IMG/VR virus record: IMGVR_UViG_3300033146_002242
Span: 32,001 to 96,000 of that record
Direction: 5' to 3' (one strand)
From: a virus
Length of the DNA: 64,000 bases
A program made the translations under genes and the position numbers. Of this stretch, positions 1 to 26,775 are shown one piece after another. The notes under the pieces are model-generated. The model was not told where the DNA came from. It saw only the letters and a program-made list of their open reading frames with translations, and made no database searches. How positions within the stretch are numbered: position 1 is the first letter of the stretch; every line of letters begins with the position of its first letter.

Positions 1-184
1 AACCAGCTTTAAAACAATTAAATATTGGTTTATCTAATGAAATATATAAATGATTGTGGTGATGATGTAATCTATTTATTTCACACCACGGACATTTACA
101 TATTATATTACTACTTGTTATTTTTACTTCACCAAGATATTCTTCAATGAAATCTATAAATTTGTCTTGGTAAATACCAATCAT
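1..184 (-). CDS. dnaG: DNA primase, N-terminal zinc-binding domain (truncated by window edge; not in ORF track)
   Basis: Manual translation MIGIYQDKFIDFIEEYLGEVKITSSNIICKCPWC...HLYISLDKPIFNCFKAG; CPWC..H..FNCF primase Zn-ribbon pattern; directly downstream of the clamp loader. Confidence 0.75.
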   Translation of the reverse strand, partial: MIGIYQDKFIDFIEEYLGEVKITSSNIICKCPWCEINRLHHHHNHLYISLDKPIFNCFKAG

Positions 185-185
185 T

Positions 186-1169
186 TTATTTTACCAATTT
201 AACATATTTTTTGACAGCTTCTATACTATCAAAAAGCATGGCCATAAAATTCATTGATGGTGATAAACAATCTTTATGTTTAATTGAATACTGATTAATT
301 TTAATTTTTATATATGGTGGTATTTTTTCTTTATTAAATAAATCTTCATATACCTTACGATAATCAATTTCATAAGCATATTTATTTAAAGTTTCAATTA
401 TTAATTGAATAATTTTAGAATTAGCTGATGAATTCTGTTGAATAATATTTTGCATAATTTCAATAAATTTAGATACTAAAATATTTTCCTGAGTAACAAT
501 TGATTGTTTATCAATATTTAATTTTCCATCAACAGAGAATTTTTGAAGTCTATCAATTATTTTACGTACATCCGGGTACATAAAAGAAACTATATAATTA
601 ACATCCTCAATATCATATTTAATATTTTCTTCTTTTAAAATATTTTCACAAAATTCAATTATAATTTCAGATGGTAATAATTGAAATTTATATTCTGTTA
701 ATCTTGATTGTAGTGCATCTGGAATATTTGCTACATAATTACAAGTTAATATAAATCTATTTGTTTCAGAATATTTTTCAATAATAGCTCTTAATGAATG
801 AAATGCGTGATCTGTTAAATAATCTGCTTCATCAATGAAAACAATTTTTAATTTATCAGGTGGCGCAACAGGAATTTTTAAGAAAGGTTCTATAACATTA
901 GATACAAAATTGATACCTCTATTTTCTTGTGCTGACCCATTCAAAGCTAATACATTAGCTTTTCTATTTTGTATAATACCATTTTTAGATGTAATAATTC
1001 TTGCAATTGATGATTTACCTGTTCCCGGTGGTCCGTGTAATAATAAAGATGGTACATCATTATTGTTGATATATTCTTTAAATTTAACACTATATTTTTC
1101 TGGTAAAACTAAATCATCTATTTTCTTCGGTCTATATTTTTCAACCCATAAAGAATTTAAAATTTCCAT
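186..1169 (-). CDS. Clamp loader AAA+ subunit (RFC small / T4 gp44-like)
   Basis: LWVEKYRP, Walker A GPPGTGKS, Walker B IVFIDEAD, LQSR sensor. Confidence 0.95.
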   Translation of the reverse strand: MEILNSLWVEKYRPKKIDDLVLPEKYSVKFKEYINNNDVPSLLLHGPPGTGKSSIARIITSKNGIIQNRKANVLALNGSAQENRGINFVSNVIEPFLKIPVAPPDKLKIVFIDEADYLTDHAFHSLRAIIEKYSETNRFILTCNYVANIPDALQSRLTEYKFQLLPSEIIIEFCENILKEENIKYDIEDVNYIVSFMYPDVRKIIDRLQKFSVDGKLNIDKQSIVTQENILVSKFIEIMQNIIQQNSSANSKIIQLIIETLNKYAYEIDYRKVYEDLFNKEKIPPYIKIKINQYSIKHKDCLSPSMNFMAMLFDSIEAVKKYVKLVK

Positions 1170-20139: not shown

Positions 20140-20820
20140 ATGGACGATACAAGAATTTTAATTACAAATGAATATTATCCAAAAGGATTAAATGATGTGC
20201 AAGTGCAAAAACATTATAAGAAATATCAAAAAGAAATTTTATTAGAAGTACAACGAAGAAAAGTTGCTCTTGTAATCTGTCCAGATACAAATAATTTAGT
20301 TTGGTTAAGGAATATTAAAAATAAACCTATTTATTTAAAGAATAGGAGAGATTTTCAAAATATAATTCATGAAAGAGTTTTATCAATTTTTCCTGAAATT
20401 CAACAGTATGAAAAGAAATTAGTTGTTGATATTGATTGTACTAATATTAATAATGCAAAAAAAGTAGCAAAATTATTATATAATATATTTACAAAGTCTG
20501 GATATATTACTGATGTAAAAATATTTTTTACTGGACAAACATCTTTTCATTTACATTTATTTTTACCTAATAAAACAAATATTGAGAGAGGTAAAGAATT
20601 AGTTGATGGGTTAATTAGGAGAGATGCATTTGCTCCAAAATTAATGACAATCAATCAAAGAAGGCCCAAAGATGAATTCCCAAATATAGATTTTTCAACT
20701 TTTAAAGAAAGATCAATTTATATTTGTCCATATTCATTATCAAAATTTGGGTTAATTGCGGGAGAAGTAAAAATAAATGAAATAGATTCATTTAATATAC
20801 AACATTATAAAGTTAAATAG
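20140..20820 (+). CDS. Archaeo-eukaryotic primase-polymerase (LigD PolDom-like AEP)
   Basis: LVVDID (motif I), FTGQTSFHLH (motif II), IDF...CPYSL. Confidence 0.75.
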   Translation: MDDTRILITNEYYPKGLNDVQVQKHYKKYQKEILLEVQRRKVALVICPDTNNLVWLRNIKNKPIYLKNRRDFQNIIHERVLSIFPEIQQYEKKLVVDIDCTNINNAKKVAKLLYNIFTKSGYITDVKIFFTGQTSFHLHLFLPNKTNIERGKELVDGLIRRDAFAPKLMTINQRRPKDEFPNIDFSTFKERSIYICPYSLSKFGLIAGEVKINEIDSFNIQHYKVK

Positions 20821-21391
20821 TTTATTCACTAAATAAGAGTGAGGCGGGCCTCGGCTAAGCAGAATAAATATTATATATATTTGCTCACTAAATAAGTGAG
20901 ATATTGTTGTGTTGTTTGGATAAATATTATATATGTTTGCTCACTTATTTAGTGAGACTGGATTTTTCCCTATCATCAGAATATTAATTAGATAAAAACA
21001 TATTTGCTCATTAAATAAATGAGATATAACCTGGCCGTTATTTTAATTAAATATTATGTATTTGCTCACTAAATAAGTGAGAGATTATGTTCTTTTGATT
21101 TAGGTATTAAAGTATTTTGAATAATATATGTTTGCTCATTAAATAAATGAGACAGGGCGTAAGAAGGTAAAAATAAATGAAATAGATTCATTTATAATAT
21201 ACAACATTATAAAGTTAAATAGTTTGTTCACTAAATAAGTGAAATGAGATTATTTTGTTTTTTATTAGATTATTAATCAAATAAAAACATGTTTGCTTAC
21301 TAAACAAGTGAGATGGGGATAGAGAGTTTGGACGTAAATCAGGTTTTTAAAATAAAATATATGTTTGCTCATTAAATACAATAAAAATGAG
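20811..21391 (+). CRISPR. Degenerate CRISPR-like array, 9 hairpin repeats, type V (Cas12m/Cas12j-like) architecture
   Basis: Cores at 20821, 20880, 20936, 21003, 21061, 21131, 21223, 21292, 21364; consensus (TAAATATTATATATG)TTTGCTCACT-AAATA-AGTGAGA; period 56-92 nt; mostly unique spacers. Confidence 0.72.
21162..21239 (+). repeat. Direct duplication of the primase-polymerase 3' end plus first repeat (20763-20838)
   Basis: AAAAATAAATGAAATAGATTCATTT..AATATACAACATTATAAAGTTAAATAGTTT.TTCACTAAATAAG present twice with few indels. Confidence 0.9.
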
Positions 21392-21412
21392 AAAAGTAGC
21401 TAATGTAATTTG

Positions 21413-21444
21413 TTTTAAAAAATAAAAAGAGTTATATATATTTA
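21413..21444 (+). promoter_or_regulatory. Candidate early promoter (31/32 identical to 49440-49471)
   Basis: TTTTAAAAAATAAAA(A/C)GAGTTATATATATTTA. Confidence 0.5.
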
Positions 21445-21484
21445 TAAATAGTAGAAATGATTATAATTTTATATAGGTAATAAA

Positions 21485-22015
21485 ATGAAAGCTAATATTG
21501 AAAAAGAAAAACTTTTTAAAAAGTTTATAGATAATGGAGAAATTTGGGCTGATAAATATGGTAATATTTATAAGAAAAATGGAACTTGTAAATATCATTT
21601 AAATAATACTGGTTATTATAGATTATCATATAAATCAATAACTATTTTTGTGCATAGGTTGGTTTGGATTTATTTCAAAGGATTGATATATGATGATAAG
21701 CTACAAATTAATCATATTGATGGGGATAAATTAAATAATACTTTGGAAAATTTAGAAATTGTTGATAATAAAACTAATACAAAACATGCTATACTAATGG
21801 GTTTACGAACACCCATATCAGAAAAAACAAAACAATATTTTTCTGAAAAGATAAGGGGGTGCAAAAATATAAATGCAAAATTTACACAATCCGATGTTAT
21901 TTTATATAGGTATTTATATAAAATGGGCAAAATAAATATAAAAACAATTTCTGAAAAATACGATATAACACAACGAAGTGTAAAAAATATGTTGAGTGGA
22001 AAAACATATAATTAA
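21485..22015 (+). CDS. Free-standing HNH homing endonuclease
   Basis: [37 protein letters not shown]; C-terminal NAKFT..V helical DNA-binding region. Confidence 0.9.
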
Positions 22016-22022
22016 GTTATAT

Positions 22023-22385
22023 GCCCGGATGGCGGAATAGGTAGACGCAAGGGACTTGACTCGTAAATAAATTGAGCGGCATATTTGAAAAAATATGTTT
22101 GAATCGGGTGAATTCAGGGGAACCTTCTTAATTTTATTTAGAATTAAATGGCAATCCTGAGCCAAGACATCAACGCTTTGATGGAAGGTGCAGAGACTAG
22201 ATGGTGAGGAAAGATACGTTTCTCGTAAAACATCATAAGCGCCCGACACCTAAGGATTTTATTTTAATCTATGGTGATGATATAGTCCAGACCACAAACA
22301 TTGTAAAATGGCAATGAAAATTGTAGTGGTACGAAAATCCCTCGTTCGTAAGAACGTGCCGGTTCGATTCCGGCTCCGGGCATCA
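22023..22385 (+). tRNA. trnL: tRNA-Leu(UAA), split by a group I intron (exons 22023-22057 and 22334-22382)
   Basis: GCCCGGA/TCCGGGC acceptor, D arm, AGGGA-CTT|AAAA-TCCCT anticodon arm, long variable arm, TTCGATT loop. Confidence 0.92.
22058..22333 (+). mobile_element. Group I self-splicing intron (IC3-like, no internal ORF)
   Basis: Inserted after U34; P1 CTT/GAG; core GAATTCAGGGGAACC, AATCCTGAGCC, GCAGAGACTAGA, GATATAGTCC; terminal G. Confidence 0.9.
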
Positions 22386-22407
22386 ATTTAATTTAAAAGG
22401 AGGATGA

Positions 22408-22638
22408 ATGGAACAACAACATATGTCGAATAGTAAACCCTTATACATACACACATCAGATGGGTGTGTATATCGGGAAGATATATCGTTATATGCCTGT
22501 GATATATCATTTGAAGAAGTTATGGAAAAAGAAGTGAACTATTATATAAATAATGGATATAAAAATATCACTCCTAATGGAGTTGATGTCACTTTTTATC
22601 CTCCCAGTCAAATCCTAAAGTTTACTTATAAACGATAG
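22408..22638 (+). CDS. Hypothetical protein
   Basis: AGGAGG RBS, 76 aa. Confidence 0.65.
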   Translation: MEQQHMSNSKPLYIHTSDGCVYREDISLYACDISFEEVMEKEVNYYINNGYKNITPNGVDVTFYPPSQILKFTYKR

Positions 22639-22666
22639 GATTTAAAAGAATCGACAAAAACTTTTC

Positions 22667-22823
22667 GTTGTGGTAAATTGTAGTTCGCGAACACCACAAC
22701 ATAGGTGGGTAGATTGCACCTCTCCACCAAAAGTTACAAAACGATTGCCATTCTCGGCCAAGAATGGAAAAAGGTATTATTCGTTTATTGCTCGGAATGA
22801 ATAATATGCTTCGGTGAAGGCAT
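22667..22823 (+). ncRNA. Intergenic string of five hairpins, candidate ncRNA
   Basis: gttgtggt/accacaac, ggtgg/ccacc, ccattct/agaatgg, tattattc/gaataata, atgc-ttc/gaag-gcat. Confidence 0.4.
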
Positions 22824-22880
22824 CGGAGAATATAAAAAGAATTAAATAGCTTTGAAAATCAGGATTAACAAATATTGATA

Positions 22881-23051
22881 CTCTCAGATTGCGAAGCCTC
22901 AGAGCTCTTAGATGAGCAGCCGGAGGATAGGCTGAGAGTTGGAGTCGTCGATACAGGGAGTCCAGAGAATACTGTCAAGTCTTAAGGCTTCGGTAGCAGT
23001 ATTTGATGACGGACCCGGTGCAGTGTAGAAGCTAGTCTGGTAACAGAAGGC
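22881..23051 (+). ncRNA. Structured RNA-like element, copy 1
   Basis: 114 nt (22938-23051) identical to 24005-24118; 5' domain covaries between copies; followed by terminator-like gcctcg/cggggc-T5. Confidence 0.6.
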
Positions 23052-23123
23052 AAGGCCACCGAAAGGCGCATGGCCCATGCCTCGGATTTGCTTGCGGGGC
23101 TTTTTATCCTAAGGAGCGAAATT

Positions 23124-23303
23124 ATGTTATATGAGTGTAATACCGGACTTAACTGTTCTGAGTGTAGAGGGTGTGCTACGCAACTTGAAGTTTGTTCGGA
23201 CTTTATCTCCCTTGAATACCTTTCAGAAGAGTGTACGCACAGAAATCTAGAAATGGAGTTGGAAGTGCCTATAACCAGAGAAAAAACCCCGAGAATATCT
23301 TAG
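23124..23303 (+). CDS. Small Cys-rich hypothetical protein
   Basis: AAGGAG RBS; MLYECNTGLNCSECRGC. Confidence 0.55.
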   Translation: MLYECNTGLNCSECRGCATQLEVCSDFISLEYLSEECTHRNLEMELEVPITREKTPRIS

Positions 23304-23378
23304 CTACTTGTTAGTTTTGTGGGGCGTAGGGCAAGTTAACTCACGATGTTTTTGAAAAATTGAATAAGGAGTTAGACC

Positions 23379-23816
23379 ATGAAAGTATATCTTACAAGAC
23401 GAGTTGCTAATATGACAGATGGTATGGGGCCCATGCAAATCGACAAGTGCTTTCTTTACGAAGGGCATGCTAACAAGTATATAAATGCCCAACCAGGAAT
23501 TATGGGAAGGCGAGCATGTTGGAGCAAGAGAGAGGTTGGAGACTGGGATGTTATCCCTTTAGAAGTTATTGAAGAAGATATTATTGGTAACACCCGGTCT
23601 GCTAATGAGATTAAAATAGAAGACTTGGAAGACTGGACTACGCAAATTTGGAAAGAATACGCTGCCGAATTATATCAAGGGAAATGTCTGATACTATCGG
23701 TTTCTTTGGGAAGAGGGGAATACCAGGTAACTCTTGGTAAAGAAGTTCTCTACCGAGGGTCTGATAAAAGTAAGGCTAAGTATGCGTATGAGGAAGTCAC
23801 AAAACTGGACGACTAG
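23379..23816 (+). CDS. Hypothetical protein
   Basis: AAGGAG RBS; 145 aa; higher GC. Confidence 0.75.
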   Translation: MKVYLTRRVANMTDGMGPMQIDKCFLYEGHANKYINAQPGIMGRRACWSKREVGDWDVIPLEVIEEDIIGNTRSANEIKIEDLEDWTTQIWKEYAAELYQGKCLILSVSLGRGEYQVTLGKEVLYRGSDKSKAKYAYEEVTKLDD

Positions 23817-23945
23817 GGTTAAAGTTAAGGGTATCTGTGCATAATAGGGTTAAAGTTCCTCCCTGCTGGATGTGTATAAACCAGTCTACACTTGGTATAA
23901 AGACTAAAGGTGGGGTCGACTCCCATTGCCCGCACTATTTTGACA

Positions 23946-24118
23946 CCTCTGGATTGCGAAGCCTTGTACCCTTGTTTAGAGGGAGCCGAGAGGATAGGCC
24001 AGAGGTTGGAGTCGTCGATACAGGGAGTCCAGAGAATACTGTCAAGTCTTAAGGCTTCGGTAGCAGTATTTGATGACGGACCCGGTGCAGTGTAGAAGCT
24101 AGTCTGGTAACAGAAGGC
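23946..24118 (+). ncRNA. Structured RNA-like element, copy 2
   Basis: cctctgg/ccagagg stem replaces ctctcag/ctgagag of copy 1; identical 3' 114 nt. Confidence 0.6.
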
Positions 24119-24312
24119 GCGGGGCGTTTTTTAAAAAAATAATAAAATGTATAATGGATATTTATATCTAAGAAAAAATATTAAAAAATTAATAAAATTA
24201 TATAGGCAGTATAATAAAAGTTTTATGAAAAAGGATTGAAAGAAAATATAATAAACATCGGAATAAATATAATTGATTTTTTTTATTACATCAAATTAGT
24301 TGAGAGGAGATT

Positions 24313-26355
24313 ATGGAGTTTATTGATTTTGTCGGGAAAATAAAAAAGAATTTTGAATATATGAAATCAAAATCTGATATTTTATTTTATACTACAAGAG
24401 ATAGAAATAAAATATGGGAAACATATTTACAATCATTTCCAGAAGGATCAAATCCAATATATAAAGAAAGAACTGAACATGATTGTAATGCATGTAAATC
24501 ATTTATAAGACAATTTGGATCCATTGTTGTCATAGATCCATCTGATTTAAAGATGTTATCTATATGGGATATGGAAATAGGTGGTTCATATCAAGATGTT
24601 GCTGATGCAATGTCACGATATGTTAAATCACATCCTATTGAAAATATTTTTATGCATAATGAAAAAAATATGGGAATTGAATGTAATAGACAAGAAGTAG
24701 GTGGTAAAATTCTGAAATGGCATCATTTTCATTTAAAAACACCATCTAATATATTAGTCAATAAAGATGTAATAAATGAAATCAAATCAGAATCAAGAGC
24801 CAACAAAGAAGTATTATATAGAAGTTTAACTGAATTAACAATTGAATCTGCTGAAATTGTATTAGATTTAATTGAACAAAATACATTGTATCGTGGCCGT
24901 GAGCATAAAAAAGTTGTGGAACTATTTATTGAATTAAAGAAACAGTTTAATAAAGTACCAGATAATTTAAAAGATCATTGTTGTTGGCTAACATCAGTTT
25001 CATTTAAATCATTATCAAAAATTAGAAATACTGTTATAGGTACATTATTATCTGATTTATCAGAAGGAAAAGATATTGAAGATGCTGTAAAAGCATATGA
25101 ATTTAAAGTAGCTCCTTCGAATTATAAAAGACCGAAAGCTATTGTAACTAAATCAATGATTTTACAAGCTCAAAATACTCTTAAAGATTTGGGTTTATTA
25201 GAATCATTGGAAAGAAGATATGCAACAATATCAGATATATCTGTTAATAATGTATTGTTTGCAGATAGATCTGTTAAACCAGCAATGAAAGATGTGTTTG
25301 ATGAATTATTAGAACAAACACCTGAAAAAATAAAAAAATATGATAATGTTGAAAAAATTCATATTGAAAAATTTATATCTGATGTATTACCAAAAATTAA
25401 TACACTTGAATTATTTATTGATAATAAACATTTAAATAATTTAGTAAGCTTAACAACAGCTGTTAATCAGGATGCACCTTTTTTATTTAAATGGCCGAAT
25501 CATTGCGCATGGTCATATACAGGTGACGTGGCAGATTCGATCAAAGAAAAAGTAAAGCAAGCTGGTGGAAAAGTTGATGGTGTTATACGGTGTTCTTTAT
25601 CATGGTATAATACAGATGATTTAGATATACATGTAATTGAACCCAATCAAAATGAGATTTATTATTTAAATAATACTTCATTCACATCTGGAAAATTAGA
25701 TGTTGATATGAATGCCTCTGCACGAAAAGCTGTGAGAGGTGCTGTTGAAAATATTACATGGAACAACAGAAATAGAATGTTGGAAGGTAATTATGATTTG
25801 ATTATTCATAATTATAAAGTTCGTGAACGTAATATTGATGTTGGGTTTGAAGTTGAAATTGAACATAATGGACATGTATATAGTTTTAATTATCCAAAAC
25901 ATGTTAGCCATTCAAAGCCAATTAAAGTTGCAACATTTTATTATAATCCAAGAACAGATGAATTCAAATTAATATCATCCATACAATCAACTGAAAATAT
26001 AAAAGTTATAGATGAATGGAATATAAAAACAAATCATTTTCATAAAGTCCAATTATTATTGATGTCTCCCAATTTCTGGGATAATGGTAATGGATTTGGT
26101 ATTGGTAATAAACATTATTTCTTTATGTTAGAAAATTGTAAAAACCCAGATAATTGTCGGGGTTTTTATAATGAATATTTAAAAGCTGATTTAACTAAGC
26201 ATAGAAAAGTATTTGAGATTTTAGGGTCTAAAATGAAAGCTCCATATACTGACAATCAATTAAGTGGTATTGGATTTTCAGAGACACAAAAAAATAGAGT
26301 TATTGTTAAAGCGAGTGGGTCTTTCAATAGGCCATTAGAATTAATTTTCCAGTAA
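24313..26355 (+). CDS. Large hypothetical protein
   Basis: 680 aa, GAGGAG RBS; HDCNACKSF; C-terminal DLDIHVIEP..LDVD..VENITW (YfaP/DUF2135-like pattern, uncertain). Confidence 0.8.
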   Translation: MEFIDFVGKIKKNFEYMKSKSDILFYTTRDRNKIWETYLQSFPEGSNPIYKERTEHDCNACKSFIRQFGSIVVIDPSDLKMLSIWDMEIGGSYQDVADAMSRYVKSHPIENIFMHNEKNMGIECNRQEVGGKILKWHHFHLKTPSNILVNKDVINEIKSESRANKEVLYRSLTELTIESAEIVLDLIEQNTLYRGREHKKVVELFIELKKQFNKVPDNLKDHCCWLTSVSFKSLSKIRNTVIGTLLSDLSEGKDIEDAVKAYEFKVAPSNYKRPKAIVTKSMILQAQNTLKDLGLLESLERRYATISDISVNNVLFADRSVKPAMKDVFDELLEQTPEKIKKYDNVEKIHIEKFISDVLPKINTLELFIDNKHLNNLVSLTTAVNQDAPFLFKWPNHCAWSYTGDVADSIKEKVKQAGGKVDGVIRCSLSWYNTDDLDIHVIEPNQNEIYYLNNTSFTSGKLDVDMNASARKAVRGAVENITWNNRNRMLEGNYDLIIHNYKVRERNIDVGFEVEIEHNGHVYSFNYPKHVSHSKPIKVATFYYNPRTDEFKLISSIQSTENIKVIDEWNIKTNHFHKVQLLLMSPNFWDNGNGFGIGNKHYFFMLENCKNPDNCRGFYNEYLKADLTKHRKVFEILGSKMKAPYTDNQLSGIGFSETQKNRVIVKASGSFNRPLELIFQ

Positions 26356-26391
26356 ATATATTTTTGTTTAATTCCAAACAAGGAGATAAAG

Positions 26392-26775
26392 ATGAGTGAT
26401 GTGAATTTGTTTGAACTTGCAAGTCGTATGAAATTTCGTTTTGATACCACAAAAGGGCAGTTATCCGTAGAAGATTTATGGGATATTCCCATGACTGGAA
26501 AAGTGTCATTAGATGCCATTGCTATTGATTTAAATAAAAAATTGAAGGACACCAATGAAAGTTTTGTAGTCCAAAAAAGCAGTGCTAATAAAATTATTGA
26601 ATATAAATTTGATTTAGTTAAATATGTAATTCAGACCCGCTTGGCTGAAATTGAAGCGCGGCAAAAAGAGAAAGAAAATAAAGAAAAGAAACAAAAGATT
26701 CTACAAATTATCGAAGAAAAGGAAAACGAATCATTGAAAAATATGTCTATTGAAGAATTGAAAAAAATGATTTAA
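26392..26775 (+). CDS. Hypothetical coiled-coil protein
   Basis: AAGGAG RBS; FRF..KGQLSVEDLWD. Confidence 0.75.
   Translation: MSDVNLFELASRMKFRFDTTKGQLSVEDLWDIPMTGKVSLDAIAIDLNKKLKDTNESFVVQKSSANKIIEYKFDLVKYVIQTRLAEIEARQKEKENKEKKQKILQIIEEKENESLKNMSIEELKKMI

Follow-up and report, generated by a model that had tools for sequence, protein, structure and literature searches.

A duplicated element with covarying hairpin stems, a candidate structured RNA, flanks a two-gene cassette in a phage contig

In an AT-rich virus contig, two similar stretches of about 175 nt stand on either side of a pair of small genes. The question raised by this arrangement is whether the repeated element is an RNA and, if so, whether it acts on the genes beside it. 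The DNA analysed (the window, 64,000 nt, 27% GC) comes from a 118-kb virus record of IMG/VR with a completeness estimate of ~38%. When the window was scanned with Rfam 15 at gathering thresholds, eight tRNAs and one group I intron were detected, none of them on the two copies of the element, which are called E1 and E2 here. Two genes lie upstream of E1 as follows.

21485-22015, + strand: free-standing HNH endonuclease gene, ending just upstream of tRNA-Leu
~22021-22384, + strand: tRNA-Leu(UAA) gene split by a group I intron

The intron (RF00028, 76.9 bits, 22055-22306 in the Rfam scan) is placed after the first anticodon base, and the tRNA that it splits was missed by ARAGORN. The tRNA-Leu lies ~500 nt and its intron ~600 nt upstream of E1, with further tRNAs from 27484. 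Between tRNA-Leu and E1 come a 76-aa ORF and then a hairpin-rich stretch of 240 nt. This stretch (22640-22880, + strand, 35% GC) is predicted to form a branched structure and three strong hairpins, with z = -2.5 and -2.1 against shuffled sequences, and it gave no match in Rfam. On these predictions, it may belong to the E1 leader or be a separate RNA.

The two copies of the element have the following limits.

22878-23053, + strand: E1, copy 1 of the element, ~176 nt, 50% GC, detected as a direct repeat and scoring 221.6 bits with covariance model R1
23943-24120, + strand: E2, copy 2 of the element, 178 nt, 52% GC, detected as a direct repeat and scoring 223.9 bits with covariance model R1

Covariance model R1 was built from E1 and E2 themselves. 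An earlier reading of this DNA from its letters (the sequence-only reading) had described two copies at this place, 1067 nt apart and with 114 identical nt, and this description was borne out. Repeat family D1 (129 nt, 96% identity) has a spacing of 1067, repeat family D6 covers the 5′ part of the element with a spacing of 1065, and the longest identical run in the alignment is 114 nt (columns 63-176, at the 3′ side). The duplication is beyond chance. Homology between E1 and E2 begins ~10 nt before the first stem, S1, and after a 42-nt indel it picks up again at GCGGGGC and a T-run in both copies. From these limits, the repeat unit extends from just before the first hairpin through the U-run. 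Delimited in this manner, it is by all appearances a complete leader or terminator-ended unit. The spacer after E2 has 16% GC and the cassette ORFs between the copies have 41%, against 27% for the window, which agrees with the flanked two-ORF cassette of higher GC in the sequence-only reading. In intergenic DNA that is AT-rich, GC-rich islands are known to predict structured RNA (PMC6429828). The perfect identity over 114 nt adjoining a diverged 5′ part would imply gene conversion or crossover, and the foreign GC of the cassette suggests its entry by recombination at a resident copy of the element. Such a recombination history at the DNA level is compatible with an RNA function of the element.

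The two copies differ in the 5′ domain, and the pattern of the differences bears on the question of an RNA fold.

22881-22938, + strand: 5′ hairpin domain of E1, from E1/E2 pair counts, with the differences concentrated on paired columns
22881-22887 with 22932-22938, + strand: stem S1 of E1
23946-23952 with 23999-24005, + strand: stem S1 of E2

Stem S1 reads CUCUCAG/CUGAGAG in E1 and CCUCUGG/CCAGAGG in E2; both sides are changed in five of the seven pairs, and pairing is kept in all seven. Helix S1b is CCUC/GAGG in E1 and CCUU/GAGG in E2 (C-G to U.G), and the apical hairpin S2 is GCUC/GAGC in E1 and CCCU/AGGG in E2. The S1 and S2 strands proposed earlier are thus in register and paired as claimed. 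The internal loops GAUUGCGAAG and AUAGG are identical in E1 and E2. With the S2 block left out, the 5′ domain has 12 differences; 11 of them are on paired columns and one is on the 18 unpaired columns (Fisher P=0.004). Judged from the two copies, the covariation of the 5′ hairpin is beyond chance, and there is good evidence of selection for an RNA hairpin in this domain. S1b and S2 both carry C-G to U.G changes, which on the opposite strand would give A.C. Since these one-sided changes yield G.U on the + strand and A.C on the other, the folded strand is the + strand, on which all neighbouring genes and the U-runs also lie. The element is very probably a structured RNA of the + strand, as its 5′ hairpin carries compensatory as well as one-sided (C-G to U.G) changes and it forms a GC island in AT-rich DNA.

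The remainder of the element is the same in both copies.

22939-23022, + strand: 3′ domain of E1, identical in E2, invariant, with two alternative predicted folds
23031-23051, + strand: hairpin of E1 with a GUAA (GNRA) tetraloop, from folding

For the 3′ domain, either a long irregular hairpin or a pseudoknot of helices S3 and S4 around the AAUACUG/CAGUAUU hairpin is predicted, and the two folds are indistinguishable because the domain is invariant between the copies. S3 (GUCGUCG/UGAUGAC, -7.9 kcal/mol) and S4 (GUCC/GGAC, -4.8 kcal/mol) cross each other if drawn together. RNAalifold predicts one long, fully nested hairpin, with GUC/GAC, GGG/CCC and UAC/GUG in place of the S3/S4 pseudoknot, and a third arrangement is predicted once downstream sequence is included. 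The strands GTCGTCG/TGATGAC and GTCC/GGAC, the CTG-GTAA-CAG hairpin and the ends with GCGGGGC and a T-run, all named in the sequence-only reading, were located in the sequence. Its description of the element as “doubly pseudoknotted” and “kissing” was not supported, the complementarity being inside the invariant part only and an equally good nested fold being available. The long-range complementarity CGAAGCCT / AGGCTTCG amounts to 8 bp in E1 and to 9-10 bp in E2, and the pair CGAAGCCU/AGGCUUCG as a duplex has an energy of -14 to -15.5 kcal/mol. A perfect helix of at least 8 bp was seen in 13% of E1 shuffles; the 8-bp long-range pair, taken alone, is within chance. Part of its 5′ strand is taken up by the covarying helix CCUC/GAGG, and the 3′ strand (the would-be kissing loop) can fold into a small hairpin of its own. 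Of perfect helices with at least 7 bp there are 3 and 4 against ~0.6 in shuffles (P=0.03 and 0.01), which is a modest excess over chance. The overall folding energy of the element is no better than that of shuffles (z = +0.41 and -0.08). On these predictions, a double pseudoknot in the element is a possibility.

Both copies end in terminator-like sequence.

23054-23075, + strand: extra GC-rich hairpin GGCCA...UGGCC with a GAAA loop, from alignment and folding
23079-23105, + strand: intrinsic-terminator-like hairpin GCCUCG...CGGGGC of E1 with U5, from folding and sequence
24116-24132, + strand: end of E2, GGCGCGGGGCG then U6, homologous to the 3′ strand of the E1 terminator

The extra hairpin lies within the 42-nt stretch of E1 that is missing from E2. 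The terminator-like hairpin of E1 (23079-23100, -11 to -12 kcal/mol) is followed by U5 at 23101-23105, and 5 nt further on by AAGGAG (23111-23116); the ATG of ORF59 (23124) is 18 nt past the U-run. These 18 nt leave no room for a promoter, so ORF59 would need read-through. A simple terminator scan left out the E1 hairpin, which has a loop of 10 nt, and a consensus terminator scan listed no + strand terminator at E1 or E2. The end of E2 reads GCGGGGCG followed by U6. Its sole good 5′ partner, GACGGACCCGGUGC, is inside the element, and the terminator predicted for E2 is branched and non-canonical. An AT-rich spacer of ~190 nt with a promoter-like site (10/12 matches) separates E2 from a 680-aa gene, and E2 may only end the cassette transcript. 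At E1 the layout is that of a leader, with a + strand leader, a terminator hairpin and U-run, an ORF on the same strand and no promoter between; at E2 this layout is found in part only. Columns 129-146 re-pair between the folds predicted with and without the terminator 3′ strand, the bases being invariant and the energies no better than those of shuffles.

The genes of the cassette give few clues to what would be controlled.

23124-23303, + strand: ORF59, Cys-rich, 59 aa, with AAGGAG 7 nt upstream
23379-23816, + strand: ORF145, 145 aa

Six Cys are present in the 59 aa of ORF59. No relatives of this protein were detected in 5.8 billion protein clusters, and its sole family signal is a weak sub-threshold match to the sporulation inhibitor Sda (E = 0.0023). 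The N-terminal ~65 aa of ORF145 (23379-23575) belong to a widespread, unnamed family of small phage proteins. The family motif is MKVY..DMTEGRGPM..GDW, and its members occur on phage-like metagenome contigs of 30-56% GC. Neither ORF145 nor its N-domain family matched a Pfam or PHROG family, and ORF145 has a single homolog (62%), on a 941-nt contig. The AlphaFold model of ORF145 (pLDDT 45) was too poor for use, and the ESM Atlas search made alongside it gave unnamed phage clusters only. No toxin family in Pfam or PHROGs was matched by ORF59 or ORF145. The 680-aa gene behind E2 matches phrog_1735, for which no function is assigned in PHROG. Between ORF145 and E2 lies a 13-nt direct repeat, TAGGGTTAAAGTT (23814-23826 and 23845-23857, + strand, 31 nt apart), and its first copy overlaps the ORF145 stop codon.

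In the data sets searched, the element appears to be without relatives. No homolog was obtained by blastn against GenBank phages and plasmids or by a six-frame ‘pseudo-protein’ search of IMG/VR. When IMG/VR was searched for DNA patterns, exact and gapped, five gapped matches were obtained, all of which failed the covariance model. An 18-mer was matched 7 times in 185,579 species genomes against a chance estimate of ~17, and these matches scored <11 bits and fell in no Rfam family. The sequence-only reading had looked to a covariance model of both copies for further members in phage metagenomes, and none came to light. Model R1 gave no match at 80 loci with relatives of the 680-aa gene, in 50 whole related phage records or beside relatives of the ORF145 N-domain (20 metagenome loci), and no further copy in the rest of this record with filters off. 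In 151 Bacillota genomes R1 gave a single match of 23.8 bits (E = 0.001 per genome), which from its sequence is most likely due to chance. It lies at 165-309 (- strand) of locus L121, as a full-length alignment inside a 324-aa ORF beside an FtsA-like gene. It has CUGUCAAG.CU.AAG.CUU.GG.AGCAG in common with the element, with a blastn identity of 34/45, and was the sole match above noise. An exhaustive HMMER search with the minus-strand frame against 1.84 billion proteins returned low-complexity repetitive matches only, and a full-text literature search for sequence fragments of the element found none.

The view that the element belongs to no known family was upheld, as none of the 4227 models of Rfam 15 reached its gathering threshold on the element in an Infernal-type scan. 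Relaxing the cut-off to E<=10, with 1751 nt or 247 nt as query, brought up only eukaryotic snoRNA/lncRNA noise and a weak DicF match that lies outside the element and on the other strand. The element is below the threshold of the Rfam models for both GOLLD and ROOL. Group I introns have a P3-P7 pseudoknot order with P8 between P3′ and P7′. In the element the hairpin does not occupy the P8 place: the 5′ strand of helix 2 precedes it, and the 3′ strand of helix 1 follows it. The model RF00028, which scores the true intron at 76.9 bits, has no match on the element, and as to exons, no ORF or RNA gene is continuous across E1 or E2. HDV-like ribozymes form a nested double pseudoknot, P1-P2-P3-P1.1-P4, with J4/2 and its catalytic C between P1 3′ and P2 3′. 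When S3 and S4 are drawn together, GGAC follows directly after UGAUGAC, leaving no P4 or J4/2; the ‘P3’ would have 7 bp and a loop of 22 nt, and no HDV-type model scores. The HDV-like or theta assignment was thus rejected. The term ‘ribozyme-like’ in the sequence-only reading is without support, the strand order fitting neither HDV-like RNAs nor group I introns and no ribozyme model scoring.

Other classes were also set aside. Type III toxin-antitoxin loci have tandem RNA repeats of ~34-45 nt, a terminator and an endoribonuclease toxin gene; the element is a single 175-nt unit with no tandem short repeats and no toxin family downstream, and ToxIN/CptIN was dropped. A DGR template/variable pair was rejected on changes in both directions (T-C, C-T, A-G and G-A) and on the lack of an RT among the neighbouring ORFs. 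The core sites of attC are RYYYAAC...GTTRRRY, and the ends of IS200/IS605 are short subterminal hairpins with TnpA. No core sites of an integron attC are in register here (GTTGGAG fails the last position of GTTRRRY), and no integrase or transposase is found among the neighbouring ORFs (20140-26775). The loops vary in IS110 bridge RNA, not the stems. For a CsrA sponge, GGA motifs are not enriched in a rough count. Hammerhead, RNase P-like RNA, tmRNA, omega or tracr-type guide RNA and leader peptide were considered and dropped. A VVDTGS motif, as in a decayed aspartic-protease fragment, was seen without a Pfam match; the frames over the elements gave no Pfam match at E<=1, and of the candidate ORFs over the elements that were looked up, none is in the public protein set or called by the gene caller.

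The explanation favoured here, and held tentatively, is that E1 and E2 are cis-acting RNA modules controlling read-through, that is, terminator-coupled leaders of a riboswitch-like or put-like kind. The succession of structured RNA, terminator, RBS and ORF, with a strand that is predicted to pair either in the element or in the terminator helix, matches the design of terminator-coupled leaders, and the position of the E1 terminator directly before the RBS, which the sequence-only reading had not remarked on, favours a cis-regulatory leader or read-through over a scaffold or ribozyme. Each module would comprise the covarying 5′ hairpin with its conserved loops, the invariant 3′ domain, the GUAA hairpin and a terminator-like hairpin with a U-run. 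It would act in cis on the transcript carrying it and set the read-through of the terminator by the polymerase, into ORF59 and ORF145 behind E1 and into the 680-aa gene behind E2. In a riboswitch or attenuator design, GAUGACGGACCCGGUGC would pair either at the base of the 3′ domain or in the terminator helix, and the two structures would be mutually exclusive. In a put-type design, as in HK022, the folded RNA would make the polymerase terminator-resistant. Transcription, the fold of the 3′ domain, switching and the contact with a ligand or polymerase are what we infer in this proposal.

Known systems resemble the element to different degrees. Like the terminator-coupled leaders of Gram-positive bacteria and phages, at E1 it places a structured leader, a U-run hairpin, an RBS and an ORF in succession on the coding strand; a strand predicted to be common to the structured domain and the terminator helix, and high GC in AT-rich DNA, are further likenesses. 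Unlike riboswitch leaders, it has no Rfam 15 riboswitch match and no homologs, its downstream ORFs are orphans, and E2 is far from a gene. Giant phages run their own RNA polymerases. In HK022, putL and putR are two similar cis-acting RNAs of one phage that bring about read-through of terminators preceding early genes; they are ~70 nt long, have two stem-loops and act on the zinc-binding domain of the β′ subunit of E. coli RNA polymerase (PMC9378689). As with put, two cis RNA copies stand before terminators in one phage, helices are parted by conserved bulges or loops, and no dedicated protein partner is evident nearby. Unlike put, the element is ~175 nt long and has no sequence likeness, and the analogy is one of design only. 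The candidate structured RNAs of viruses and phages (PMC10690425), GOLLD and ROOL are similarly phage-borne, GC-rich, ornate and near tRNAs, and many of these viral and phage candidates contain or adjoin terminators (PMC10690425). Whereas those candidates have several homologous regions across genomes, the element has two copies in one record. With HDV-like (theta) ribozymes and group I introns it has in common crossing helices that can be drawn, a GNRA-capped 3′ hairpin and a true intron ~600 nt upstream, but its strand order misfits both cores, and it has neither a covariance-model score nor exon continuity.

Several findings weigh against the leader. No homologs were found, so the 3′ domain, the switch and a pocket have no comparative support; the minimum free energies equal those of shuffles; E2 is ~190 nt from the 680-aa gene, with the promoter-like site between; the predicted E2 terminator is branched and non-canonical, and neither copy had a + strand terminator in the consensus scan; and the downstream ORFs are orphans that give no hint of a ligand. 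Close behind the leader in likelihood, and likewise tentative, is a stable trans-acting small RNA of ~190-235 nt with its own terminator, the cassette being served by leaky read-through. Such an RNA would bind a protein or pair with targets, for example via the conserved loop GCGAAGCCU. Consistent with it, the repeat unit stops at the U-run in both copies, and behind E2 come 190 nt of AT-rich spacer with a promoter-like site, as for a stand-alone RNA gene. The neighbourhood is one of RNA genes (tRNA-Leu with its intron ~500 nt upstream, tRNAs from 27484), and conserved single-stranded loops lie within variable stems. However, the sequences preceding the two copies have no promoter motif in common. 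For the 10 nt conserved ahead of S1, the window shows no enrichment (64 matches observed, 55 expected), and the other exact + strand matches inspected are in coding DNA. The 5 nt between the E1 terminator and the RBS, and the lack of homologs, also count against a small RNA.

It is improbable that the repeats matter mainly as DNA, either as recombination joints for gain or loss of the cassette or as a hairpin that is a DNA feature or passenger. The GC of the cassette (41% against 27%), ORFs without relatives in this phage group, the 114 nt of perfect identity beside a strongly diverged 5′ part and the clean 42-nt indel between E1 and E2 would all suit such a history. It leaves unexplained the pairing-preserving double changes in separated 7-nt strands, the conserved loops and the G.U polarity, and no integrase, transposase, attC core sites or A-specific (DGR-type) differences were seen; it is, moreover, compatible with an RNA function and not opposed to it. 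Very unlikely are self-cleaving or processing ribozymes that would cut the transcript on either side of the cassette. Two like elements do bracket a two-gene unit, small ribozymes (theta) beside phage tRNAs are known (PMC10879173), and the crossing helices S3 (-7.9 kcal/mol) and S4 (-4.8 kcal/mol) can be drawn. Nevertheless, a scan of 247 nt at E<=10 matched no ribozyme family, the P4 and J4/2 segments that would house an HDV-type catalytic C are lacking, the hairpin is not where P8 of group I lies, and the same bases are explained by the nested fold. Hardly tenable is a peptide-coding or decayed gene fragment. A 29-codon frame extends from UUG 22939 through the invariant part, and on the minus strand one frame stays open across the whole of E2, but Pfam was not matched at E<=1 in any frame, and the candidate ORFs looked up over the elements were not called by the gene caller. 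The minus frame found only repetitive low-complexity proteins in HMMER and has its start codon in the 42 nt absent from E2, and the changes in the 5′ domain track base pairs, not codons. A larger proposal, which we regard as rather doubtful, is that E1 and E2 would be the first seen members of an undescribed ~175-nt RNA class of giant phages, ligand-sensing, polymerase-modifying or catalytic, which gates an imported cassette and in which the 8-10-bp loop-loop pairing of the two domains is a genuine tertiary contact.

The element, with two copies on one uncultured contig and no relatives in the data searched, is a well-founded candidate for the bench and not yet a class. It is an unusual case, in which one genome supplies its own covariation test through two copies with matched stem changes. 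Termination and the control of gene cassettes in giant phages are little known, and a new class of structured RNA from these phages would be gained if the element works as an RNA.
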